In this document: piece after piece, positions 9,390 to 62,920 of the stretch
Layout of the letters: every line of letters begins with the position of its first letter
How positions within the stretch are numbered: the stretch's first letter is position 1
Origin: Escherichia coli
Lineage (GTDB): Bacteria; Pseudomonadota; Gammaproteobacteria; Enterobacterales; Enterobacteriaceae
Strand: one strand, 5' to 3'
Length of the DNA: 64,000 nt
Assembly: GCF_024223415.1 (NCBI RefSeq)
Contig: NZ_CP100500.1
Notes under the pieces: generated by a model
What the model saw: only the letters and a program-made list of their open reading frames with translations
Databases searched by the model: none
What the model was told of the DNA's origin: nothing
Translations under genes and position numbers: made by a program

Positions 9390-9473
9390 TGTAGGCCGGG
9401 TAAGACGCTGTAGGCCGGATAAGACGCGTCAGCGTCGCATCCGGCAATCAGCATCCGGCGATCACCATCAGGC
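9390..9473. repeat. REP/BIME cluster (tandem palindromic units)
   Basis: Repeated gccggataagacgc / gcgtcgcatccggc palindromic units typical of E. coli REP elements. Confidence 0.7.
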
Positions 9474-15009: not shown

Positions 15010-15299
15010 TTCTTTTTTAACTCTCACGCTTACCCTGAATATTCAGGGTAAGCGGTCCAGCTGCAATATATTAGTAAAGATTATTACTGAGTTTACGAAT
15101 AATAAAAAAAGCAATATAAAATATCTCGATATTATTTTATTTATATTCATGCGTCGCATATGAAAGTTTATTCATAACAGTAAATATCTCTCCATTCTTA
15201 GTGATCTACCTCACCTTTTAAACGCGCTTGCCGAATTTTGTTATTTACTCTGACGAAAAATTGTCACGATACACGAAAGTTTTTCACAGGCGGCGACTC

Positions 15300-20767: not shown

Positions 20768-21604
20768 ATGGCGCACGACGAACAATGGCTCACCCCACGT
20801 CTGCAAACAGCGGCAACGCTGTGTAACCAGACGCCCGCCGCGACGGAATCTCCGCTGTGGCTGGGGGTGGATCTGGGCACCTGCGATGTGGTGTCGATGG
20901 TTGTCGACCGCGACGGTCAGCCAGTGGCGGTATGCCTCGACTGGGCCGATGTGGTTCGCGACGGCATCGTCTGGGATTTCTTCGGCGCGGTCACCATTGT
21001 TCGTCGCCATCTCGACACGCTCGAGCAGCAATTCGGTCGCCGTTTTAGCCATGCGGCGACTTCATTTCCTCCAGGTACGGACCCGCGTATTTCCATCAAC
21101 GTGCTGGAGTCTGCTGGACTGGAAGTGAGCCATGTGCTGGATGAGCCAGCCGCAGTCGCGGATCTGCTGCAACTGGACAACGCCGGTGTAGTGGATATCG
21201 GCGGCGGCACTACCGGCATTGCCATCGTGAAAAAGGGCAAGGTGACGTACTCGGCGGATGAAGCAACCGGCGGACATCACATCTCTCTGACTCTCGCCGG
21301 AAATCGCCGTATTTCGCTGGAAGAGGCAGAGCAGTACAAGCGCGGTCACGGTGACGAGATTTGGCCCGCGGTGAAACCGGTGTACGAAAAAATGGCGGAC
21401 ATTGTCGCCCGGCATATTGAAGGGCAGGGCATTACTGATTTATGGCTGGCGGGCGGCTCCTGTATGCAACCGGGCGTGGCAGAACTGTTTCGCAAACAAT
21501 TCCCGGCGTTACAGGTGCATTTACCGCAGCACAGTTTGTTTATGACCCCGCTGGCGATCGCCAGTAGTGGGCGAGAGAAAGCGGAGGGGCTATATGCAAA
21601 ATGA
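20768..21604 (+). CDS. eutJ: EutJ chaperonin (Hsp70/actin-like, 278 aa)
   Basis: Operon position; actin-fold ATPase motifs. Confidence 0.85.
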   Translation: MAHDEQWLTPRLQTAATLCNQTPAATESPLWLGVDLGTCDVVSMVVDRDGQPVAVCLDWADVVRDGIVWDFFGAVTIVRRHLDTLEQQFGRRFSHAATSFPPGTDPRISINVLESAGLEVSHVLDEPAAVADLLQLDNAGVVDIGGGTTGIAIVKKGKVTYSADEATGGHHISLTLAGNRRISLEEAEQYKRGHGDEIWPAVKPVYEKMADIVARHIEGQGITDLWLAGGSCMQPGVAELFRKQFPALQVHLPQHSLFMTPLAIASSGREKAEGLYAK

Positions 21605-22781
21605 ATTGCAGACCGCGCTCTTTCAGGCGTTCGATACCCTGAATCTGCAACGGGTAAAAACATTTAGCGTTCCACCGGTGACGCTTTGCGGTCCGGGCTC
21701 GGTGAGCAGTTGCGGACAGCAAGCGCAAACGCGTGGGCTGAAACATCTGTTCGTGATGGCAGACAGCTTTTTGCATCAGGCAGGGATGACCGCCGGGCTG
21801 ACGCGTAGCCTGGCCGTTAAAGGTATCGCCATGACGCTCTGGCCATGTCCGGTGGGCGAACCGTGCATTACCGACGTGTGTGCAGCCGTGGCGCAGTTGC
21901 GTGAGTCAGGTTGTGACGGGGTGATCGCATTTGGCGGCGGCTCGGTGCTGGATGCGGCGAAAGCCGTGGCGTTGCTGGTGACGAACCCGGATAGCACGCT
22001 GGCAGAGATGTCAGAAACCAGCGTTCTGCAACCGCGCTTGCCGCTGATTGCCATTCCAACTACCGCCGGAACCGGCTCTGAAACCACCAATGTAACGGTG
22101 ATTATCGACGCGGTGAGCGGGCGCAAGCAGGTGTTAGCCCATGCCTCGCTGATGCCGGATGTGGCGATCCTCGACGCCGCATTGACCGAAGGTGTGCCGT
22201 CGCATGTCACGGCGATGACCGGCATTGATGCGTTAACCCATGCCATTGAAGCATACAGCGCCCTGAACGCTACACCGTTTACCGACAGTCTGGCGATTGG
22301 TGCCATTGCGATGATTGGCAAATCGCTGCCGAAAGCGGTGGGCTACGGTCACGACCTTGCCGCGCGCGAGAGCATGTTGCTGGCTTCATGTATGGCGGGA
22401 ATGGCGTTTTCCAGTGCGGGTCTTGGGTTGTGCCACGCGATGGCGCATCAGCCGGGCGCGGCGCTGCATATTCCACACGGTCTCGCGAACGCTATGTTGC
22501 TGCCAACGGTGATGGAGTTTAACCGGATGGTTTGTCGTGAACGCTTTAGTCAGATTGGTCGGGCACTGCGAACTAAAAAATCCGACGATCGTGACGCTAT
22601 TAACGCGGTAAGTGAGCTGATTGCGGAAGTTGGGATTGGTAAACGACTGGGCGATGTTGGCGCGACATCTGCGCATTACGGTGCATGGGCGCAGGCCGCG
22701 CAGGAAGATATTTGTCTGCGCAGCAACCCGCGTACCGCCAGCCTGGAACAGATTGTCGGCCTGTACGCAGCGGCGCAATAA
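21594..22781 (+). CDS. eutG: EutG iron-containing alcohol dehydrogenase (395 aa)
   Basis: ORF 21567-22781; start set at MQNELQTALF; Fe-ADH family. Confidence 0.85.
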   Translation: MQNELQTALFQAFDTLNLQRVKTFSVPPVTLCGPGSVSSCGQQAQTRGLKHLFVMADSFLHQAGMTAGLTRSLAVKGIAMTLWPCPVGEPCITDVCAAVAQLRESGCDGVIAFGGGSVLDAAKAVALLVTNPDSTLAEMSETSVLQPRLPLIAIPTTAGTGSETTNVTVIIDAVSGRKQVLAHASLMPDVAILDAALTEGVPSHVTAMTGIDALTHAIEAYSALNATPFTDSLAIGAIAMIGKSLPKAVGYGHDLAARESMLLASCMAGMAFSSAGLGLCHAMAHQPGAALHIPHGLANAMLLPTVMEFNRMVCRERFSQIGRALRTKKSDDRDAINAVSELIAEVGIGKRLGDVGATSAHYGAWAQAAQEDICLRSNPRTASLEQIVGLYAAAQ

Positions 22782-22801
22782 ATGCCGGATGCGACGCATG
22801 C

Positions 22802-23556
<755 letters not shown>

Positions 23557-23660
23557 ATCAGCATACTTGTCCTTAGCCTTCTGCAGTGACAGCTGGTAGT
23601 ACAGCGTGCTTCTGGCCAGCCCTGCAGCCTTTAACAGGTCAGACTGGCAGTGTCCGCACT

Positions 23661-24191
23661 TCAGGCTCTGGATGACTTTCGTTTTTTCTCCAGCTCCTGG
23701 CGCTTTTTTTCCAGGAGATGCTCCTGCATGGCTTTCAGATATGCATTTTCTGCGCGAAGATAACGCAGCTCATTCTTCATCTCTTCCGGCGTCATGTTTG
23801 CCTCGTTTTCATGGGTATCATCAGAACGGGTCATGCTTTTCTCCTTCCTGCGCCTGATAAAGGCCTCATTACCAGATTTGCGGTAGCCTTTTATCCAGTT
23901 TTTAACCATGTTGTGGCTGGGAATGTTAAACCGGGCAGCTACCCGGGGTAGAGACTCAGAATGCCCGAGAGCATAAAGAACCACGCAAAGTTTATCTTCA
24001 GGAGAATAGCTACGCTTGTGTCTGCAATCCAGTGCCTGAGGACCGTGAAGAAGAAAAAGATTAATCCAGTGTGAGAGGCTGGTGTGAGAAAGTTGAAAGA
24101 GTTTTGCCGTAGAAATGATGCCTGCATGACCGGCCAGGTAATGATTTACAGCGGCAAGTTTTACTTCAAATGAATGTTTCATAAACTGCAC
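23661..24191 (-). CDS. IS3-family transposase OrfA (HTH, 176 aa)
   Basis: Translation shows HTH plus leucine-zipper-like C-terminus; ends at LEKKRKSSRA just after an A6 slippery run. Confidence 0.8.
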   Translation of the reverse strand: MQFMKHSFEVKLAAVNHYLAGHAGIISTAKLFQLSHTSLSHWINLFLLHGPQALDCRHKRSYSPEDKLCVVLYALGHSESLPRVAARFNIPSHNMVKNWIKGYRKSGNEAFIRRRKEKSMTRSDDTHENEANMTPEEMKNELRYLRAENAYLKAMQEHLLEKKRQELEKKRKSSRA

Positions 24192-24236
24192 CTTCAGATG
24201 TCAGATTATGTCCAACATTTGGGGTGCAGTTCAATG

Positions 24237-24305
24237 TCGCGTCTTATCCGGCCTACGGGATTGCACATGTAGAGCGGATAAAGCGTTCACGCCGCATCCG
24301 CTAAT
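24237..24305. repeat. REP palindromic units (eutG-eutH intergenic, right of the IS)
   Basis: tcgcgtcttatccggcctac ... gcggataaagcg ... gccgcatccgc REP-like units; the left half gccggatgcgacgcatg sits at 22784-22800 on the other side of the IS. Confidence 0.65.
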
Positions 24306-24333
24306 AAATAACAACTAACAGGGAGTAAAGGCG

Positions 24334-25559
24334 ATGGGAATTAACGAAATCATCATGTACATCATGATGTTCTTTATGCTGATAGCTGCCGTAGACAGGA
24401 TCCTGTCGCAGTTCGGCGGTTCTGCTCGTTTCCTCGGTAAGTTCGGTAAAAGTATCGAAGGATCAGGCGGTCAGTTCGAAGAAGGCTTTATGGCAATGGG
24501 CGCTCTGGGTCTGGCGATGGTCGGTATGACCGCGCTGGCACCGGTACTGGCTCACGTACTCGGGCCGGTAATTATCCCGGTTTACGAAATGCTCGGCGCA
24601 AACCCGTCAATGTTCGCCGGAACGCTGCTGGCGTGCGATATGGGCGGCTTCTTCCTCGCCAAAGAGCTGGCGGGCGGCGACGTAGCCGCGTGGCTATACT
24701 CTGGGTTAATTCTCGGGTCGATGATGGGGCCAACGATTGTGTTTTCCATTCCGGTGGCGCTCGGCATTATCGAACCTTCTGACCGTCGTTATCTGGCGCT
24801 CGGCGTGCTGGCGGGCATTGTGACCATTCCGATTGGTTGTATCGCTGGTGGTCTGGTAGCTATGTACTCCGGTGTGCAGATCAACGGCCAGCCGGTGGAA
24901 TTCACTTTCGCCCTGATCCTGATGAACATGATCCCGGTGATCATTGTTGCGATTCTGGTGGCGCTGGGGCTGAAATTCATCCCGGAAAAAATGATCAACG
25001 GCTTCCAGATCTTCGCCAAATTCCTCGTTGCATTGATCACCCTCGGTCTTGCCGCTGCGGTAGTGAAATTCCTGCTTGGCTGGGAACTGATCCCCGGTCT
25101 GGATCCTATCTTTATGGCCCTGGCGATAAACCCGGTGAGGTGATGCGCGCCATTGAAGTTATCGGTTCTATCTCCTGCGTTCTGTTAGGGGCGTATCCGA
25201 TGGTGCTGCTGCTGACCCGCTGGTTTGAAAAACCGCTGATGAGCGTCGGTAAAGTGCTGAATATGAACAACATCGCGGCAGCCGGCATGGTGGCAACGCT
25301 TGCCAACAACATCCCGATGTTCGGCATGATGAAGCAGATGGATACCCGCGGCAAAGTCATCAACTGCGCCTTCGCCGTTTCTGCTGCTTTCGCCCTGGGC
25401 GACCACTTAGGCTTCGCCGCTGCCAACATGAATGCCATGATCTTCCCGATGATTGTCGGCAAGTTGATCGGCGGCGTAACGGCGATTGGCGTGGCGATGA
25501 TGCTGGTGCCAAAAGACGACGCGGCCGCAGCTAAAACCGAAGCGGAGGCACAATCGTGA
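24334..25559 (+). pseudogene. eutH: eutH ethanolamine permease, disrupted by a 1-bp frameshift
   Basis: 262 codons in frame from ATG 24334 to ...GLDPIFMA, then LAINPVR-stop at 25141-25143; the remaining 146 codons (PGDKPGEVMRAIEV... to stop 25557-25559) are in another frame; 262+146 = 408 aa, the canonical EutH length. Confidence 0.75.
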
Positions 25560-26959
25560 ACACTCGCCAGCTACTGAGCGTCGGTATCGATATCGGCACC
25601 ACCACCACTCAGGTGATTTTCTCCCACCTGGAACTGGTTAACCGTGCGGCGGTGTCGCAGGTGCCGCGCTACGAATTCATCAAACGCGAAATTAGCTGGC
25701 AAAGCCCGGTGTTCTTTACCCCTGTCGATAAACAGGGTGGTTTAAAAGAAGCGGAACTGAAATCGCTGATTTTAGAGCAATATCAGGCTGCGGGCATTGC
25801 GCCGGAAAGCGTTGATTCTGGTGCCATCATCATCACCGGTGAAAGCGCGAAAACCCGCAATGCTCGCCCGGCGGTGATGGCGCTCTCTCAGTCGCTGGGC
25901 GATTTTGTCGTCGCCAGCGCCGGGCCGCACCTCGAATCCGTGATCGCCGGTCACGGAGCCGGGGCACAAACCCTTTCTGAACAACGGCTGTGTCGGGTAC
26001 TGAATATCGACATTGGCGGTGGCACCGCGAACTACGCCCTGTTCGATGCCGGAAAAATCAGCGGCACTGCCTGCCTCAACGTCGGTGGTCGCCTGCTGGA
26101 AACCGACAGCCAGGGGCGCGTGGTTTACGCTCATAAACCGGGGCAGATGATTGTGGATGAGTGCTTCGGCGCAGGCACCGACGCCCGTTCGCTGACCGGC
26201 GCGCAGCTGGTGCAGGTTACCCGGCGGATGGCAGAGCTGATTGTCGAAGTGATTGACGGAACGCTCTCGCCGCTCGCGCAGGCATTAATGCAAACCGGTT
26301 TGCTCCCCGCAGGTGTTACGCCCGAAATCATTACGCTTTCTGGCGGCGTGGGCGAATGTTATCGCCACCAGCCCGCCGACCCGTTCTGTTTTGCCGATAT
26401 TGGCCCACTTCTGGCAACGGCGCTGCATGACCATCCGCGCCTGCGTGAGATGAATGTGCAGTTTCCGGCGCAAACCGTACGCGCCACGGTGATTGGCGCG
26501 GGGGCACATACCCTTTCGCTCTCTGGCAGCACAATCTGGCTGGAGGGCGTACAACTGCCGCTGCGCAATTTGCCGGTGGCGATCCCGATTGATGAAACGG
26601 ATCTGGTGGGTGCCTGGCAACAGGCGCTGATTCAGCTGGATCTTGATCCCAAAACTGACGCGTACGTGCTGGCGCTTCCCGCCTCGCTGCCTGTGCGTTA
26701 CGCCGCGGTACTGACGGTCATCAACGCGTTGGTCGATTTCGTCGCGCGTTTTCCGAATCCGCATCCCCTGCTGGTGGTGGCCGGGCAGGACTTTGGTAAA
26801 GCTCTGGGCATGTTGTTGCGCCCACAGCTACAACAACTCCCGTTGGCAGTCATTGACGAAGTGATTGTCCGCGCGGGGGACTATATCGACATTGGTACGC
26901 CTCTTTTTGGCGGATCGGTTGTGCCGGTGACGGTGAAATCACTCGCATTTCCTTCCTGA
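25556..26959 (+). CDS. eutA: EutA ethanolamine ammonia-lyase reactivase (467 aa)
   Basis: Operon position; recognised sequence. Confidence 0.85.
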   Translation: MNTRQLLSVGIDIGTTTTQVIFSHLELVNRAAVSQVPRYEFIKREISWQSPVFFTPVDKQGGLKEAELKSLILEQYQAAGIAPESVDSGAIIITGESAKTRNARPAVMALSQSLGDFVVASAGPHLESVIAGHGAGAQTLSEQRLCRVLNIDIGGGTANYALFDAGKISGTACLNVGGRLLETDSQGRVVYAHKPGQMIVDECFGAGTDARSLTGAQLVQVTRRMAELIVEVIDGTLSPLAQALMQTGLLPAGVTPEIITLSGGVGECYRHQPADPFCFADIGPLLATALHDHPRLREMNVQFPAQTVRATVIGAGAHTLSLSGSTIWLEGVQLPLRNLPVAIPIDETDLVGAWQQALIQLDLDPKTDAYVLALPASLPVRYAAVLTVINALVDFVARFPNPHPLLVVAGQDFGKALGMLLRPQLQQLPLAVIDEVIVRAGDYIDIGTPLFGGSVVPVTVKSLAFPS

Positions 26960-26970
26960 GGGAACGACTT

Positions 26971-28332
26971 ATGAAACTAAAGACCACATTGTTCGGCAAT
27001 GTATATCAGTTTAAGGATGTAAAAGAGGTGCTGGCTAAAGCCAACGAACTGCGTTCGGGGGATGTGCTGGCAGGCGTTGCAGCGGCAAGTTCACAGGAGC
27101 GCGTGGCGGCAAAGCAGGTGTTGTCGGAAATGACCGTAGCGGACATCCGCAATAATCCGGTGATTGCCTATGAAGATGACTGCGTGACGCGGCTGATTCA
27201 GGACGATGTTAACGAAACGGCCTACAACCAGATTAAAAACTGGAGCATCAGCGAACTGCGTGAGTATGTGCTGAGCGATGAAACCAGCGTGGACGACATT
27301 GCCTTTACCCGCAAAGGGCTGACCTCGGAAGTGGTCGCGGCGGTAGCGAAGATTTGCTCCAACGCGGACCTGATCTACGGCGCGAAGAAAATGCCGGTAA
27401 TCAAAAAGGCCAATACCACCATCGGTATTCCGGGCACCTTCAGCGCCCGTTTGCAGCCAAATGACACTCGTGACGACGTGCAAAGTATCGCCGCGCAAAT
27501 CTACGAAGGGCTTTCCTTCGGGGTGGGCGATGCGGTGATCGGCGTTAACCCGGTGACTGACGACGTGGAAAACTTAAGCCGCGTGCTGGATACCATTTAT
27601 GGCGTGATCGACAAATTCAACATCCCAACTCAGGGCTGCGTACTGGCGCACGTCACCACCCAGATCGAAGCGATTCGTCGCGGCGCGCCTGGCGGACTGA
27701 TTTTCCAGAGTATCTGTGGCAGCGAAAAAGGGCTGAAAGAGTTTGGCGTGGAACTGGCGATGCTCGACGAAGCGCGCGCAGTGGGCGCAGAGTTCAACCG
27801 TATCGCCGGGGAAAACTGCCTCTACTTCGAAACCGGACAAGGCTCTGCGCTATCCGCTGGCGCTAACTTCGGCGCTGACCAGGTGACGATGGAAGCACGT
27901 AACTATGGGCTGGCGCGTCATTACGATCCGTTTATCGTCAACACCGTGGTCGGTTTTATTGGGCCGGAGTATCTCTACAACGACCGCCAGATTATCCGTG
28001 CTGGCTTAGAAGATCACTTTATGGGCAAGCTGAGCGGCATCTCTATGGGCTGTGACTGCTGTTACACCAACCACGCTGACGCTGACCAGAACCTCAACGA
28101 AAACCTGATGATCCTGCTCGCCACCGCAGGCTGCAACTACATCATGGGGATGCCGTTGGGTGATGACATCATGCTCAACTACCAGACCACCGCATTCCAC
28201 GATACCGCCACTGTGCGTCAGTTACTCAACCTGCGCCCGTCACCGGAGTTTGAACGCTGGCTGGAAAGCATGGGCATTATGGCAAACGGTCGCCTGACCA
28301 AACGGGCGGGCGATCCGTCACTGTTCTTCTGA
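26971..28332 (+). CDS. eutB: EutB ethanolamine ammonia-lyase large subunit (453 aa)
   Basis: Recognised sequence; directly follows eutA with no intervening prophage. Confidence 0.9.
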   Translation: MKLKTTLFGNVYQFKDVKEVLAKANELRSGDVLAGVAAASSQERVAAKQVLSEMTVADIRNNPVIAYEDDCVTRLIQDDVNETAYNQIKNWSISELREYVLSDETSVDDIAFTRKGLTSEVVAAVAKICSNADLIYGAKKMPVIKKANTTIGIPGTFSARLQPNDTRDDVQSIAAQIYEGLSFGVGDAVIGVNPVTDDVENLSRVLDTIYGVIDKFNIPTQGCVLAHVTTQIEAIRRGAPGGLIFQSICGSEKGLKEFGVELAMLDEARAVGAEFNRIAGENCLYFETGQGSALSAGANFGADQVTMEARNYGLARHYDPFIVNTVVGFIGPEYLYNDRQIIRAGLEDHFMGKLSGISMGCDCCYTNHADADQNLNENLMILLATAGCNYIMGMPLGDDIMLNYQTTAFHDTATVRQLLNLRPSPEFERWLESMGIMANGRLTKRAGDPSLFF

Positions 28333-28352
28333 TGACGCGGAGATAACACATC

Positions 28353-29240
28353 ATGGATCAAAAACAGATTGAAGAAATTGTACGCAGCGTGATGGCGTCA
28401 ATGGGACAAACGGCCCCCGCGCCGTCAGAAGCAAAGTGCGCCACTACCACCTGTGCGGCACCGGTGACCTCGGAAAGCTGCGCGCTGGATTTAGGTTCTG
28501 CGGAAGCAAAAGCGTGGATTGGTGTTGAAAACCCACATCGTGCGGATGTGTTAACAGAACTGCGTCGCAGCACCGTGGCCCGCGTTTGTACCGGTCGTGC
28601 CGGTCCGCGTCCGCGTACCCAGGCGCTGCTGCGTTTCCTGGCCGATCACTCTCGTTCGAAAGATACCGTACTTAAAGAAGTGCCGGAAGAGTGGGTGAAA
28701 GCGCAGGGCTTGCTGGAAGTACGCTCTGAAATTAGCGACAAAAATCTCTACCTGACTCGCCCGGATATGGGCCGCCGCCTGTGTGCAGAAGCTGTTGAAG
28801 CGCTGAAAGCGCAGTGTGTTGCCAATCCGGACGTGCAGGTCGTTATTTCTGATGGCCTGTCAACTGATGCGATCACCGTGAACTACGAAGAGATCCTGCC
28901 ACCGCTGATGGCGGGCCTGAAACAGGCCGGGCTGAAAGTCGGTACACCATTCTTTGTTCGTTATGGTCGCGTGAAGATTGAAGATCAGATCGGTGAGATC
29001 CTCGGCGCGAAAGTGGTGATCCTGCTGGTGGGCGAACGTCCGGGGTTGGGTCAGTCAGAAAGCCTCTCCTGCTACGCCGTTTACTCGCCACGTATGGCGA
29101 CCACCGTTGAGGCCGATCGCACCTGTATCTCTAACATTCACCAGGGCGGCACGCCGCCGGTTGAAGCCGCAGCCGTCATTGTGGATTTGGCGAAACGTAT
29201 GCTGGAGCAGAAAGCATCCGGCATCAACATGACCCGATAA
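28353..29240 (+). CDS. eutC: EutC ethanolamine ammonia-lyase small subunit (295 aa)
   Basis: Recognised sequence. Confidence 0.9.
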
Positions 29241-29249
29241 GGAGGCATC

Positions 29250-29909
29250 ATGCCAGCTTTAGATTTGATTCGACCGTCTGTCACCGCTATGCGGGTGATT
29301 GCCTCCGTTAACGCCGATTTTGCGCGTGAACTAAAATTGCCGCCGCATATTCGTAGCCTCGGTCTGATTTCTGCCGACTCCGATGACGTCACCTACATTG
29401 CCGCTGATGAAGCGACCAAGCAGGCGATGGTGGAAGTGGTGTATGGCCGCTCGCTGTATGCGGGAGCGGCACACGGCCCGTCACCGACTGCCGGTGAAGT
29501 GCTGATTATGCTTGGTGGGCCAAACCCGGCGGAAGTGCGTGCAGGTCTGGATGCGATGGTTGCGCATATTGAAAATGGCGCTGCTTTCCAGTGGGCTAAT
29601 GATGCGCAAGATACGGCATTCCTGGCACATGTAGTTTCGCGTACCGGTTCTTATCTCTCATCAACCGCCGGGATCACGCTTGGCGATCCGATGGCGTATC
29701 TGGTGGCACCGCCGCTGGAAGCGACCTACGGCATTGATGCAGCGTTGAAATCTGCCGACGTACAGCTGGTGACCTATGTCCCGCCACCGTCTGAAACCAA
29801 CTACTCGGCAGCATTTTTAACCGGTAGCCAGGCCGCGTGTAAAGCAGCCTGTAACGCCTTTACCGATGCAGTGCTGGAAATCGCGCGTAATCCAATCCAG
29901 CGTGCGTAA
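29250..29909 (+). CDS. eutL: BMC-T shell protein EutL (219 aa)
   Basis: Recognised sequence. Confidence 0.85.
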
Positions 29910-29921
29910 TGGAGGTTGCCG

Positions 29922-30422
29922 ATGATCAATGCACTGGGATTGCTGGAAGTGGACGGCATGGTCGCTGCGATAGATGCAGCGGATGCCATGCTCAAAGCAG
30001 CTAACGTTCGTCTGCTCAGTCACGAAGTGCTTGACCCTGGTCGCTTAACGCTGGTGGTGGAAGGCGATCTGGCGGCGTGTCGTGCTGCGCTGGACGCAGG
30101 TTGTGCTGCCGCGATGCGTACCGGGCGTGTCATCAGCCGTAAGGAGATCGGTCGGCCAGACGATGACACCCAGTGGCTGGTTACTGGCTTTAACCGCCAG
30201 CCGAAGCAACCCGTAAAGGAACCCGACGCGCCAGTTATCGTCGCGGAATCTGCTGACGAGTTGTTGGCGCTGTTAACATCAGTACGTCAGGGAATGACGG
30301 CAGGAGAAGTGGCTGCCCACTTTGGCTGGCCGCTGGAAAAAGCCAGAAATGCGCTCGAACAGCTCTTTTCTGCCGGGACGTTACGTAAACGCAGTAGTCG
30401 TTATCGTCTCAAGCCCCATTAA
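29922..30422 (+). CDS. eutK: BMC shell protein EutK (about 166 aa)
   Basis: ORF 29916-30422; BMC domain plus C-terminal HTH-like tail; start uncertain between 29916 and 29922. Confidence 0.8.
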   Translation: MINALGLLEVDGMVAAIDAADAMLKAANVRLLSHEVLDPGRLTLVVEGDLAACRAALDAGCAAAMRTGRVISRKEIGRPDDDTQWLVTGFNRQPKQPVKEPDAPVIVAESADELLALLTSVRQGMTAGEVAAHFGWPLEKARNALEQLFSAGTLRKRSSRYRLKPH

Positions 30423-30467
30423 CCTGTCGGAGGTGCCGGGTGTCCTACAACACCCGGCATTAACATC

Positions 30468-31520
30468 ATGAAAAAGACCCGTACAGCCAATTTGCACCAT
30501 CTTTATCATGAACCCTTACCCGAAAACCTGAAGCTCACGCCGAAGGTCGAAGTGGATAATGTTCATCAACGACAGACAACGGATGTCTATGAACATGCTT
30601 TAACGATTACCGCCTGGCAGCAGATTTACGATCAGCTGCATCCGGGCAAGTTTCATGGTGAATTTACGGAAATTCTACTCGATGATATTCAGGTTTTTCG
30701 TGAATACACCGGTCTGGCGCTGCGTCAGTCGTGTCTGGTCTGGCCGAACTCGTTCTGGTTTGGCATTCCGGCGACGCGCGGTGAGCAGGGATTTATCGGT
30801 TCGCAATGTCTGGGAAGCGCAGAAATAGCGACGCGCCCTGGTGGAACCGAGTTTGAATTAAGTACGCCGGACGATTACACGATCCTGGGCGTAGTGCTTT
30901 CTGAAGATGTCATCACCCGTCAGGCTAACTTTTTGCATAATCCGGATCGGGTATTACATATGCTGCGTAGCCAGTCGGCGCTGGAAGTGAAAGAGCAGCA
31001 TAAAGCCGCGCTGTGGGGCTTTGTCCAACAGGCGCTGGCGACGTTTTGCGAGAACCCGGAAAATCTCCATCAGCCTGCAGTGCGAAAAGTGCTGGGGGAT
31101 AATTTGCTAATGGCGATGGGGGCGATGCTCGAAGACGCGCAACCAATGGTGACGGCGGAAAGCATCAGTCATCAGAGTTACCGTAGATTACTTTCCCGCG
31201 CCCGTGAATATGTGCTGGAAAACATGTCCGAACCGGTGACGGTGCTGGATTTGTGTAATCAACTGCATGTCAGCCGCCGCACGCTACAAAACGCGTTTCA
31301 CGCTATTTTAGGCATTGGCCCAAACGCGTGGCTGAAACGCATTCGCCTGAACGCCGTGCGCCGCGAACTAATAAGCCCGTGGTCGCAAAGCACAACGGTA
31401 AAAGACGCCGCCATGCAGTGGGGATTCTGGCATCTGGGGCAATTTGCCACGGATTACCAGCAGCTGTTTGCCGAGAAGCCGTCGTTGACGTTGCATCAGC
31501 GGATGCGGGAATGGGGGTGA
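30468..31520 (+). CDS. eutR: EutR AraC-family activator of the eut operon (350 aa)
   Basis: AraC-type HTH C-terminus; last gene of the operon. Confidence 0.85.
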
Positions 31521-31525
31521 GGGAG

Positions 31526-32428
<903 letters not shown>

Positions 32429-33298
32429 TTATCGCTTTTTCGAATGTGCTTTCTGGTTGTCGAACCAGTGGAAATAACTGATCACGCCTTCAGCAATCGC
32501 TGTGGCGATTTTCTGACGAAACGCCGCCGTGCCTAACAGTCGCTCTTCTTCCGGGTTGGTGATAAACGAGGTTTCCACCAGCACCGAAGGAACCGACGGC
32601 GATTTCAACACCACAAACGCGGCTTGTTCGGTGTTGCGGCTGTGCAGTTTATGCACCGGCTTAATCTTTTTCAGAATATGCGAGCCGAGCGTCAGGCTGT
32701 TTTTAATAGTATCGGTTTGCACCAGATCAAACAGCACTTGCTGCAATAGGTGATCCTTGTCAGTCGCCTTTTTACCGGCAACTTCATCGGCGCGGTTTTC
32801 GCGTTCAGACAGGTATTTCGCCATTGCGCTACTTGCCCCACGGTTAGAGAGGGCAAATACCGAAGCACCGGCAGCTTTCGGGTTGGTAAAGCCATCGGCA
32901 TGAATTGACATAAACAGATCTGCGCCATGTTTATGGGCGATTTCAACGCGATCGTAAAGTGGGATAAACGTATCGCCAGAACGCGTTAAACGCGCATCAA
33001 TCCCATGATTACGCAAAATGGAACGGACGTTTTTAGCAATCGCCAGCACCACATGTTTTTCTTTCGAACCGTTGCGTCCGATCGCTCCGGTATCAATTCC
33101 GCCGTGGCCTGGATCGAGAACAACGACACGTTTGCCGCCAGATTTTTTGGCTTTCGGCTTGCTGTGTCCGTTGCTGGTTTTTAAAGGTTCGTCTTTGGCG
33201 ATGGCTTGCGACATTCCTGACAACGTCAGGGCAGCCAAACCGGCTTTCAGCACCTGGCGGCGCGAAGTGAGTGTTTTTAGTGGTTTAAAAGTGCTCAT
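32429..33298 (-). CDS. amiA: N-acetylmuramoyl-L-alanine amidase AmiA (289 aa, Tat signal)
   Basis: Twin-arginine signal (SRRQVLKAG); Amidase_3 domain. Confidence 0.9.
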   Translation of the reverse strand: MSTFKPLKTLTSRRQVLKAGLAALTLSGMSQAIAKDEPLKTSNGHSKPKAKKSGGKRVVVLDPGHGGIDTGAIGRNGSKEKHVVLAIAKNVRSILRNHGIDARLTRSGDTFIPLYDRVEIAHKHGADLFMSIHADGFTNPKAAGASVFALSNRGASSAMAKYLSERENRADEVAGKKATDKDHLLQQVLFDLVQTDTIKNSLTLGSHILKKIKPVHKLHSRNTEQAAFVVLKSPSVPSVLVETSFITNPEEERLLGTAAFRQKIATAIAEGVISYFHWFDNQKAHSKKR

Positions 33299-33511
33299 AC
33301 GGCCTGAGTTGTAATAATAAAGTTCCAGATGTTATATCGTATCGCGTAATCCGTTACGACCGTTTGCTGTTGAGAATTGTTTTACTTTTCATTTCAATAG
33401 TTGACAACTCCCCATTATGCCACTTTTTCAACCGATTTTCGTCAGATATTGGCTAATTCGACCGTTCACGCCATAATCAGCCTTTTAACCCGCAAAAAGG
33501 TAACGAATACC

Positions 33512-33937
33512 ATGGAGATACGCGTATTTCGCCAGGAAGATTTCGAAGAGGTCATCACCCTTTGGGAGCGTTGCGACTTGCTGCGTCCGTGGAACGATCC
33601 GGAAATGGACATCGAGCGTAAGATGAACCATGACGTCAGTTTGTTTCTGGTCGCTGAGGTAAACGGTGAAGTGGTCGGAACGGTGATGGGCGGTTATGAC
33701 GGGCATCGCGGGTCTGCTTATTATCTTGGCGTGCATCCAGAGTTTCGTGGGCGTGGAATTGCCAATGCGTTGCTTAACCGGCTGGAGAAAAAGCTGATTG
33801 CTCGCGGCTGCCCGAAAATTCAGATCAACGTGCCGGAAGATAACGACATGGTGCTCGGAATGTATGAACGCCTGGGATATGAACACGCCGACGTGCTGAG
33901 TCTGGGTAAGCGTTTGATTGAAGATGAAGAGTACTGA
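33512..33937 (+). CDS. ypeA: GNAT acetyltransferase YpeA (141 aa)
   Basis: ORF 33401-33937; start set at [10 protein letters not shown]; GNAT motifs. Confidence 0.8.
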
Positions 33938-34373
33938 GTTTCATCCTGTCCATTATGATGCGCACGGTCGCCTGCGTTTACCCTTGCTCTTCTGGCTTGT
34001 GCTATTGCTTCAGGCGCGAACCTGGGTGCTGTTTGTCATTGCCGGTGCGTCGCGCGAGCAGGGTACTGCGCTGCTAAATCTGTTTTATCCCGATCACGAT
34101 AATTTCTGGCTGGGGCTGATTCCTGGCATTCCGGCGGTGCTGGCGTTTTTGTTGAGCGGTCGGCGGGCTACGTTTCCTCGCACCTGGCGTGTACTCTATT
34201 TTCTGTTGCTGTTGGCGCAGGTGGTTTTACTTTGCTGGCAACCGTGGCTGTGGCTGAACGGTGAATCCGTTAGCGGTTTCGGTCTGGCGCTGGTAGTGGC
34301 GGATATTGTGGCGTTAATCTGGCTGCTGACCAATCGACGTTTACGCGCTTGTTTTAATGAAGTAAAAGAATAA
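33924..34373 (+). CDS. yfeZ: inner-membrane protein YfeZ (about 149 aa)
   Basis: Hydrophobic ORF overlapping the ypeA 3-prime end; start uncertain between 33918 and 33924. Confidence 0.7.
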
Positions 34374-34433
34374 CGGCACTTTTTGGTGAATTTGCACTCC
34401 AAGCAACGTTATTGAATAACCAAAGGAAGTGAC

Positions 34434-35009
34434 ATGAAATCGCTGCGTTTAATGTTATGCGCTATGCCGTTGATGCTGACCGGCTGTTCCACGATGTCGT
34501 CAGTTAACTGGTCTGCTGCTAACCCGTGGAACTGGTTTGGTTCGTCCACCAAAGTGAGCGAGCAGGGCGTGGGTGAATTAACGGCGTCCACACCACTGCA
34601 AGAACAAGCCATTGCTGATGCGCTTGATGGCGATTATCGCCTGCGCAGCGGGATGAAAACCGCTAACGGTAATGTAGTGCGCTTTTTTGAAGTGATGAAA
34701 GGCGACAACGTGGCGATGGTGATTAACGGCGATCAGGGCACGATCAGCCGCATTGATGTGCTGGATAGCGATATTCCTGCTGACACCGGTGTTAAAATCG
34801 GTACACCGTTTAGCGACCTTTACAGCAAAGCATTTGGCAATTGCCAAAAAGCCGATGGTGATGATAATCGTGTCGTCGAATGTAAAGCCGAAGGCAGTCA
34901 ACATATTAGCTACCAGTTCAGCGGTGAATGGAGTGGTCCTGAAGGGTTAATGCCTTCGGACGATACCCTGAAAAACTGGAAAGTCAGTAAAATTATCTGG
35001 CGGCGTTAA
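34434..35009 (+). CDS. yfeY: lipoprotein YfeY (191 aa, lipobox LTGC)
   Basis: Signal peptide with lipobox. Confidence 0.8.
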   Translation: MKSLRLMLCAMPLMLTGCSTMSSVNWSAANPWNWFGSSTKVSEQGVGELTASTPLQEQAIADALDGDYRLRSGMKTANGNVVRFFEVMKGDNVAMVINGDQGTISRIDVLDSDIPADTGVKIGTPFSDLYSKAFGNCQKADGDDNRVVECKAEGSQHISYQFSGEWSGPEGLMPSDDTLKNWKVSKIIWRR

Positions 35010-35020
35010 TTTGCGTCTGA

Positions 35021-36004
<984 letters not shown>

Positions 36005-58852: not shown

Positions 58853-58913
58853 ATCGCAGATAGCAAAAAAGCGCCTTTAGGGCGCTTTTTTACATTGGTG
58901 GGTCGTGCAGGAT
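58853..58913. repeat. 61-bp direct repeat, copy 1 (lysV 3-prime end plus terminator)
   Basis: Identical to 59009-59069: atcgcagatagcaaaaaagcgcctttagggcgcttttttacattggtgggtcgtgcaggat. Confidence 0.85.
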
Positions 58914-59008
58914 GACTCGCTTCGCTCGCCCTTCGGGCCGTCGCCGCGAGCGGCTCCGTTGTTTCGCTGCGCTCAACTCGAACCTGCTGCAGGTTCGAAT
59001 CTTTGAGT

Positions 59009-59069
59009 ATCGCAGATAGCAAAAAAGCGCCTTTAGGGCGCTTTTTTACATTGGTGGGTCGTGCAGGAT
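59009..59069. repeat. 61-bp direct repeat, copy 2 (authentic lysV 3-prime end plus its terminator)
   Basis: Includes the last 18 nt of tRNA-Lys and the rho-independent terminator hairpin gcgcctttagggcgc with its T/A runs. Confidence 0.85.
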
Positions 59070-59127
59070 TCGAACCTGCGACCAATTGATTAAAAGTCAA
59101 CTGCTCTACCAACTGAGCTAACGACCC
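59052..59127 (-). tRNA. lysV: tRNA-Lys (UUU)
   Basis: Minus strand reads GGGTCGTTAGCTCAGTTGGTAGAGCAGTTGACTTTTAATCAATTGGTCGCAGGTTCGAATCCTGCACGACCCACCA. Confidence 0.95.
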
Positions 59128-61123: not shown

Positions 61124-61651
61124 TTAGCGCATAAAAGATAAACGGCAGGAGAGATACCCCTGCCGTTTTTTATTTATCCGGTGCGCCGTAAAACCCCGTC
61201 CTTCAGGGCGGGGATATAAGGCGCGGTTTTCCACCTGACCAGGTGTTTGCTGTTGTTCAATGTATTGGCGGATGACGGATATTGGCGCACCTCCGCAGCT
61301 ACTGGCAAAATAGCCAGGACTCCACAAAACGCCTTTGTAGTAATACCTGACTGCAATATCTGGTCGATCTCGTCGCAGTAACCTACCCGATACGCCTTTG
61401 AGGCTGTTTACCAGACTGGATATCGCCAGTTTGGAAGGATAGTTAATTAACAAATGGACGTGATCTGGTTCGCCATCCATTTCAACCAGTTCAGCTTCAA
61501 AATCAGCACATACATTTGAAAAGTAAGTGCGTAGTTTTTCTGTCGCGTCATAGTCAAAAATCTGACGTCGGTATCTGGTGACAAAGACCAGATGAACATG
61601 CATCAGGAAAACACAATGCCTTCCCCGTCGGATATCGGTTTCTTTATTCAT
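61124..61651 (-). CDS. tnpA: IS200-like HuH (Y1) transposase TnpA
   Basis: HVHLVF...PDHVHLLINYP (HuH motif) and GYFASS catalytic-Tyr region; the ORF runs without a stop through the gltX terminator so the true 3-prime end is uncertain; start at MNKETD or nearby. Confidence 0.7.
   Translation of the reverse strand: MNKETDIRRGRHCVFLMHVHLVFVTRYRRQIFDYDATEKLRTYFSNVCADFEAELVEMDGEPDHVHLLINYPSKLAISSLVNSLKGVSGRLLRRDRPDIAVRYYYKGVLWSPGYFASSCGGAPISVIRQYIEQQQTPGQVENRALYPRPEGRGFTAHRINKKRQGYLSCRLSFMR
61140..61172. terminator. rho-independent terminator downstream of gltX
   Basis: aaa-cggcaggagagatacccctgccg-ttttttatt. Confidence 0.7.
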
Positions 61652-62920
61652 AGACCAAAGTATCATTTGGCCGGTGAAACGACTACAGGCATTTAAATTC
61701 CAGTTAAGACCAGGTGGTCAACAGGAGCGTGAAATGAGGCGCTTCGCAGGCGCATGTCGTTTCGTTTTCAATCGTGTTCTGGCGCTTCAGAATGAGAATC
61801 ATGAGGCCGGTAATAAATACATCCCTTACGGGAAAATGGCTTCCTGGCTGGTTGAGTGGAAAAACGCACTGAAACGCAATGGCTTAAAGATTCGCCCTCA
61901 CAGCCATTGCAACAGTCACTGAAAGACCTTGAGCGGGCTTACAAAAACTTCTTCCGGAAGCGGGCTGCTTTTCCCCGATTCAAAAAAGCGGGGACAGAAT
62001 GATGCATTCCGCTACCCGCAGGGCGTTAAGCTCGATCAGGAAAACAGCCGTATTTTTCTGCCGAAACTTGGCTGGATGCGCTACCGGAACAGCCGTCAGG
62101 TCACGGGAGTTGTGAAAAATGTCACTGTCAGCCAGTCCTGCGGTAAGTGGTACATCAGTATTCAGACAGAAAGTGAAGTATCAACTCCGGTTCACCCTTC
62201 AGCATCAATGATCGGGCTGGATGCTGGCGTGGCTAAACTCGCCACGCTGTCAGATGGCACAGTCTTTGAGCCTGTAAACAGTTTTCAGAAAAACCAGAAG
62301 ACGCTGGCGAGACTTCAGCGACAGTTAAGCCGCAAGGTCAAATTCAGCAATAACTGGCAGAAGCAGAAACGCAAAATACAGCGACTGCATTCCTGTACCG
62401 CAAATATCCGCAGAGACTACCTTCACAAAGTTACAACGACCGTCAGCAAAAAACACGCAATGATAGTCATTGAGGATTTGAAGGTCAGCAACATGTCAAA
62501 GTCAGCAGCGGGTACGGTCAGCCAGCCGGGGCGCAATGTCCGGGCAAAATCAGGTTTAAACCGTTCGATACTGGATCAGGGCTGGTATGAAATGCGCCGC
62601 CAGCTTGAGTACAAGCAGCTCTGGCGTGGCGGTCAGGTGCTTGCTGTTCCGCCAGCGTACACAAGCCAGCGTTGCGCGTGCTGTGGTCATACAGCGAAAG
62701 AAAATCGCCTGTCACAAAGTAAATTCAGATGCCAGGTATGTGGATATACAGCGAACGCCGATGTAAACGGCGCTCGTAACATTTTAGCGGCGGGGCACGC
62801 CGTTCTTGCCTGTGGAGGGATGGTGCAGTCAGGCCGCTCGTTGAAGCAGGAACCCACCGAAATGATTCAGGCGACAGCCTGAACGTAGCAGGGATCCTCG
62901 TCATTCAGGGCGTGGAGGAT
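61175..62920. mobile_element. IS200/IS605-family element (divergent tnpA / tnpB); boundaries approximate
   Basis: HuH Y1 transposase gene divergent from a TnpB gene, inserted between the gltX terminator and the yfeD stop; ends not determinable by eye. Confidence 0.7.
61674..62882 (+). pseudogene. tnpB: IS605-family TnpB (RuvC-like, Zn-finger) with two compensating frameshifts
   Basis: N-terminus in frame 0 to TGA at 61920-61922; conserved block [39 protein letters not shown] is encoded at 61871-61987 in another frame; frame 0 resumes at the A6 run 61982-61987 and continues to 62882 with a CxxC...CxxC zinc finger. Confidence 0.7.

Follow-up and report, generated by a model that had tools for sequence, protein, structure and literature searches.

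The ethanolamine permease EutH (PF04346) belongs to the eut operon of Escherichia coli and Salmonella. According to a passage of PMC7677406 that cites Anderson et al. 2018, EutH matters when ethanolamine is protonated, as it is under acidic conditions, and is dispensable at neutral pH. A mobile element found at the same locus, IS1397 of the IS3 family, has a documented specificity for REPs (Clement et al. 1999; Wilde et al. 2001, 2003; both as cited in PMC1525189). Homopolymer-slippage pseudogenes of E. coli accessory genes consist of a one-base contraction of a run in a dispensable gene, within one clone and with no other decay. Phase-variable loci carry a long mononucleotide or short tandem tract, typically of 7 or more units, and switch reversibly.

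The DNA analysed here is a 64-kb stretch, referred to below as the window. It is E. coli chromosome, with the order acrD-narQ-aegA ... maeB, the eut operon, hemF ... cys/pts ... gltX according to the annotation of its relatives. Its eutH has the same place in the operon as the described permease gene, and both of its halves match the family profile. In contrast to the intact E. coli EutH of strains SCU-316 and NCTC10444, in which the 408-codon frame is whole, the frame in the window is broken after codon 262. Compared with homopolymer-slippage pseudogenes there is no material difference; the one additional feature is recurrence of the allele, which is not exceptional by the control described below. 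Unlike the tract of a phase-variable locus, the run concerned was 4 C and is now 3, and its C5 product is present on 1 public contig versus 84 for the deletion. Upstream of eutH lies a copy of IS1397 that conforms to the known REP/BIME targeting of this element, being likewise in a REP, with IS3-type HTH and rve domains and a 3-bp duplication; it is the context of the eutH lesion and not the lesion itself. The locus is very probably a genuine, recent, lineage-fixed eutH pseudogene in an E. coli clone close to NCTC10444 and SCU-316.

A single missing base breaks the eutH frame

The genes around the break, and the break itself, are as follows.

21594-22781, plus strand: eutG (ethanol dehydrogenase), intact; Fe-ADH domains, 100% identical to SCU-316, 395 aa in relatives
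24334-25143, plus strand: eutH 5' part; 262 native codons, 7 out-of-frame codons (LAINPVR) and a premature TGA at 25141-25143 (ORF list, Pfam)
25118-25120, plus strand: lesion site; CCC, corresponding to CCCC in intact eutH at gene positions 785-788 (SCU-316 alignment, three-way comparison)
25119-25559, plus strand: eutH 3' part in the native frame; 146 codons and a stop (sequence, Pfam)
25556-26959, plus strand: eutA, intact (ORF list; Pfam EutA, E 2e-179)

The gene lies between eutG and eutA, and the gene order is that of annotated relatives. In the ORF list the 5' ORF encodes 269 aa with the C-terminal end ...DPIFMALAINPVR, and a second frame carries ...GPGDKPGEVMRAIEVIG... up to the stop at 25559; the remainder of EutH, ...PGDKPGEVMRAIEVIG...AEAQS, is thus in the other frame and ends at 25559. 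Of the 351 positions of PF04346, the 5' product aligns with 1-236 (E 9e-80, 268.9 bits) and the 3' product with 230-351 (E 4e-50, 171.5 bits); the curated Pfam cut-off for EutH is 25 bits. The two halves abut and jointly cover profile positions 1-351. It had been predicted that 262 intact codons are followed by a shift and a TGA, and that 262 and 146 codons sum to 408 aa. The ORF list, Pfam and alignment all confirm the former, and the intact eutH of SCU-316 does translate to 408 aa. With the frame interrupted after codon 262, standard translation cannot yield full-length EutH, and the window eutH is a pseudogene of the EutH family and not a working member. Inspection of the sequence between the lesion and the stop revealed no X XXY YYZ slippery motif, and frame-restoring programmed -1 frameshifting is therefore unlikely.

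Alignment to the intact eutH of SCU-316, a check that the original prediction had proposed, places the lesion precisely. The lone difference in 122 aligned columns is one missing C, GGCCCCTGG in SCU-316 being GGCCCTGG in the window at 25116-25123, so that GG-CCCC-TGG has become GG-CCC-TGG with the shortened run at 25118-25120. The inactivating one-base deletion was accordingly found where it had been expected, near 25116-25121. Over the whole gene, eutH matches five complete genomes at 1226/1227 positions, with the gap as the sole difference. Both SCU-316 and NCTC10444 have CCCC at the site and are otherwise identical to the window in eutH (intact allele WP_000512369.1). Because the ancestral run is C4, the lesion is a homopolymer contraction; the earlier statement that no homopolymer longer than 3 occurs here is correct for the mutated sequence but not for the ancestral allele, with its four C. 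Part of the run also belongs to a CCTGG (Dcm) motif at 25119-25123.

The deletion is shared by other assemblies of the clone

A search with the exact 138-aa C-terminal ORF, a sequence peculiar to the C-terminus of the window lineage, identified two further, independent assemblies with the same lesion. The first (L024; contig UDHK01000033.1 of GCA_900482235.1), a 37-kb draft contig that ends inside the IS, has 0 differences from window positions 24086-35559, with the deletion and the IS end included. The second (L026; Logan SRR19977217), a 1.5-kb contig, matches positions 24204-25721 with 0 differences, again with the deletion and the IS end included. Both are short-read-style assemblies and are identical to the window through the deletion, which effectively rules out the sequencing error that had been offered as an alternative. 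They could share an isolate or reads with the window assembly, in which case short-read data would still support the C3 allele. As judged from these assembled sequences, the deletion is genuine and has become fixed in a clone. Additionally, 84 contigs across NCBI, ENA and Logan encode the exact 269-aa product, which is public under SRA13882.1 and STK39527.1 with the name 'putative ethanolamine transporter [Escherichia coli]'. A real single-base frameshift can be told from an assembly error, without access to reads, by searching public assemblies for the exact truncated product.

Among complete RefSeq E. coli genomes, eutH is present in 5,410 of 5,426, and the C3 allele was found in none (n=5,426): a 65-mer centred on the lesion has no match of ≥99% in any of the 3,137 genomes matched, and every 65-mer hit has the extra C. 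Between the window and SCU-316, only 9 positions differ across the 64 kb, in addition to the IS; the window has only 2 indels relative to SCU-316, and no other gene is broken. In a three-way comparison of the 64 kb with NCTC10444 and SCU-316, 6 substitutions and 2 single-C deletions are private to the window, compared with 7 private changes in NCTC10444 and 1 in SCU-316. The substitutions are acrD L574L, acrD T442S, aegA R497C, ucpA A244E, cysZ P137P and one intergenic change, and the deletions are those in eutH at 25118 and at 61867. UcpA A244E and AegA R497C are found in other runs in public data (on 2 and 11 contigs, respectively), and are thus markers of a sequenced clone.

IS1397 and the rest of the eut cluster

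The insertion in the eutG-eutH spacer comprises the following features.

22798-22800, no strand assigned: left copy of the target duplication, ATG (3-bp overlap of the SCU-316 alignment blocks, junction alignments)
22801-24233, minus strand: IS1397 (IS3 family), in a REP palindromic unit of the eutG-eutH spacer (HTH and rve domains, NCTC10444 annotation)
24234-24236, no strand assigned: right copy of the target duplication, ATG (SCU-316 alignment)

The boundaries were taken from the breaks in the alignment to SCU-316, in which the empty site reads GCCGGATGCGACGC-ATG-TCGCGTCTTATCCGGC; the ATG is duplicated in the window, and the element sits in the REP loop. Its transposase frames are antisense to the eut operon. 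According to Pfam, the ORF at 23661-24191 has HTH_28/HTH_Tnp_1 domains and the ORF at 22834-23556 has rve, rve_2 and HTH_21 domains, and RefSeq annotates the same place in NCTC10444 as 'IS3-like element IS1397 family transposase, programmed frameshift'. A promoter and terminator consensus scan of 22700-25700 yielded nothing above shuffled expectation.

The frameshift had been placed immediately downstream of the IS, but the element ends at 24233, about 880 bp upstream of the lesion. Furthermore, IS1397 occupies the same REP next to an intact eutH in four complete genomes, NCTC10444 and the unrelated genomes BH100N, 1162C and SK0189; the combination in NCTC10444 shows that the insertion and the frameshift are separate events. 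At its left junction NCTC10444 has one extra T, giving a 4-bp duplication (ATGT) versus the 3-bp ATG of the window, and the two insertions could be independent, or one base could have been lost. Contig L022, of window-like background, has the deletion without the IS, NCTC10444 has the IS without the deletion, and the window has both, which implies that one of the two events occurred twice or that recombination took place. A second copy of IS1397 (1,433 bp) is present in the ypfG-tkt spacer of NCTC10444, equivalent to window positions of about 9428-9431, and is missing from the window and SCU-316; the element has thus been recently active in this strain group.

The eut cluster differs from that of SCU-316 in three respects only: the IS, the eutH deletion and an intergenic SNP at 15080. 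All 17 eut genes are annotated as intact in SCU-316, and the other 16 of the window match these intact copies. Any decay is thus limited to two lesions. The earlier suggestion that the locus may be decaying is weakly supported by these two, the IS and the deletion. The SNP at 15080 falls between maeB and eutS, some 220 bp ahead of eutS, where the main eut promoter and the EutR site would be expected; here the window has a private A, versus C in NCTC10444, SCU-316 and L022.

Proposed origin and predicted consequences

One C was lost from the CCCC at codons 262-263, most simply by replication slippage. The frame then shifts after Ala262 and translation stops 7 codons later. Around the break, hydropathy drops into a trough (KD19 about -0.1 over residues 260-264) flanked by hydrophobic peaks at about 232-244 and 282-289, and the break is thus predicted to fall in a hydrophilic loop between hydrophobic segments, with loss of the last 146 residues, or roughly the last three hydrophobic segments. 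The truncated EutH is most likely non-functional and the permease probably lost. Because EutH is needed in acid and dispensable at neutral pH, the phenotype should be conditional: ethanolamine uptake would be expected to suffer when the pH is acidic or ethanolamine is scarce, and to be little affected at neutral pH, at which ethanolamine diffuses in. This expectation derives from published work on Salmonella and Listeria.

Effects on the neighbouring genes can also be predicted. The native stop of eutH and the GTG with which eutA starts overlap (GTGA), which is the normal position for translational coupling; ribosomes would now stop 413 nt before the eutA start, and coupling may be partly lost. 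Of the two changes, the greater influence on eutH-eutR expression probably comes from the antisense IS1397. An operon transcript interrupted by this element may already have meant lower expression of these genes and, with it, relaxed selection on eutH.

What the window contains is an ordinary, real and recent homopolymer-slippage pseudogene in one clone, the product of which is already in public protein databases. Its importance lies mainly in correct annotation, eutH in this clone being one frameshifted pseudogene and not two genes. In strains of the clone, ethanolamine uptake may be poor under acidic conditions, and this, together with the interruption of the operon by IS1397, could affect fitness in the gut or inside cells.

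Recurrence of eutH frameshifts in public data

The C4 run could be a mutational hotspot, or loss of EutH could be selected in some niches, such that the loss is recurrent or adaptive. This is unlikely, and it draws on a number of observations in public data. The identical C4 to C3 allele is found on at least three eutH haplotype groups, 9-19 nt apart: a K-12-type group (L005, L006, L009 and L013), L007/L014, and the window with L024 and L022. Independent lesions lie nearby, since L023 and L025, both of window-like background, have a different deletion 10 nt downstream (CCC to CC, in the run at 25131-25133). L023 (Logan SRR31140305) is a near-identical strain without the IS that also has a 57-bp in-frame deletion in eutR, equivalent to about 30780-30827, and it is a second example of eut lesions on the genetic background of the window; L025 (SRR22360841) shares its eutH lesion. 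Lastly, 84 contigs carry the present allele, versus 2-20 for the other 4-base runs of eutH.

These observations were set against a control, in which ten simulated eutH homopolymer frameshift products (eight single-base deletions and two insertions) were looked up in the same way in public data.

deletion, G4 at 393: 13 contigs
deletion, T4 at 409: 2 contigs
deletion, G4 at 633: 11 contigs
deletion, A6 at 653: 265 contigs
deletion, C4 at 759: 16 contigs
deletion, C3 at 799: 4 contigs
deletion, G4 at 856: 20 contigs
deletion, A5 at 896: 17 contigs
insertion, C5 at 785: 1 contig
insertion, A7 at 653: 3 contigs

All ten products exist publicly, on 1-265 contigs each; these counts are of contigs and not of independent events, and are inflated by clones and error-prone assemblies. 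Frameshifts anywhere in eutH are thus common among sequenced E. coli, which argues against a recurrence peculiar to this run, and the same inflation applies to its own count. A value of 84 contigs is high for a 4-base run but not clearly exceptional relative to the control, and, as every simulated homopolymer frameshift is also public, no special hotspot is claimed here. Additionally, the look-up of the 138-aa fragment finds solely lesions inside a 52-nt stretch, and the clustering of lesions is therefore partly a matter of ascertainment. A run of 4 bases is also too short for classical phase variation.

Six K-12-type NCBI assemblies (L008-L013) have the eutH C3 allele. Over 5.6 kb, L009 and L013 are otherwise identical to MG1655, while further indels number 1 in L011, 3 in L008 and 6-7 in L010 and L012. 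One possibility is that a laboratory subline of K-12 has a genuine eutH frameshift and has been sequenced repeatedly; among complete RefSeq K-12 genomes, none with the C3 allele was found.

A more elaborate version, which we regard as very improbable, would treat the C4 run, with some 15 nt around it, as a favoured site at which several E. coli lineages converge on the loss of EutH. The TGATG overlap might then preserve a split, re-initiated EutH, or at a minimum the flow of ribosomes into eutA, and in that case the lesion would tune the operon instead of abolishing the gene. The lineages brought together in that version are the K-12 subline, wild phylogroup-A-like strains, a third background and the window clone.

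A split gene or an assembly artefact

Whether the two fragments might still function together was considered separately. Re-initiation at TGATG could yield 138-aa and 269-aa fragments that form a permease, or could bring ribosomes to eutA, or both. The arrangement at the break is suited to this: the ATG at 25143-25145 is native Met271, in the native frame, it overlaps the premature stop, and GAGG lies just upstream. The 138-aa ORF that starts there is predicted by gene callers, in other assemblies too. The break is moreover located in a loop between hydrophobic segments, and the 3' part has no further lesions. That last point is explained equally well by a very recent lesion (9 positions differ from SCU-316 in 64 kb). 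Further evidence against a functional split gene is that the split would cost eight residues of the native loop (263-270) and introduce 7 foreign ones, and that L022 has a further substitution right at the eutH lesion, consistent with neutrality. To our knowledge there is no experimental precedent for a split EutH, which also counts against it. On balance, there is only a slim chance that the split gene is functional, and a plain pseudogene is the preferred reading.

Finally, it is extremely doubtful that the gene is intact and that its C4 was undercalled as C3 in a long-read assembly, an error that Dcm methylation of the overlapping CCTGG might have aggravated. In favour of this reading, the contraction overlaps CCTGG, another single-C deletion private to the window lies at 61867, the same allele occurs in K-12-like long-read assemblies rich in homopolymer deletions (L008, L010 and L012) and no complete RefSeq genome carries it. 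Such an artefact is nevertheless rejected for the window because two independent short-read-type assemblies of the same clone have the exact allele on the exact background with zero differences, the window is otherwise clean (2 indels relative to SCU-316 in 64 kb), and the deletion at 61867 falls in an insQ/TnpB pseudogene that was already frameshifted, as expected of real neutral mutations. Some other public occurrences of C3 may be artefacts. Four error-ridden long-read assemblies with this allele (L008, L010, L012 and L014) have many homopolymer deletions, and in the first three some of these are at Dcm or Dam motifs.

Other differences in the window

Outside the eut cluster, the second private deletion changes GCCAC to GCAC at 61867, in an IS200/IS605-type insQ/TnpB gene (61674-62882) that is frameshifted already in NCTC10444 and SCU-316. 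It is shared by no complete RefSeq genome, and no record of the resulting frameshifted 82-aa insQ fragment was found. A tnpA remnant is located nearby on the minus strand (61124-61666). Compared with NCTC10444 and SCU-316, the window has 156 more bases at 58853-59069, adjoining tRNA-Lys (59052-59127). This stretch consists of a 95-bp unit flanked by a 61-bp direct repeat (tRNA 3' end and terminator), and is annotated as 'RtT sRNA' in other E. coli. Its junction is matched at 100% in many genomes, and the difference is thus ordinary copy-number variation of an RtT-like repeat.
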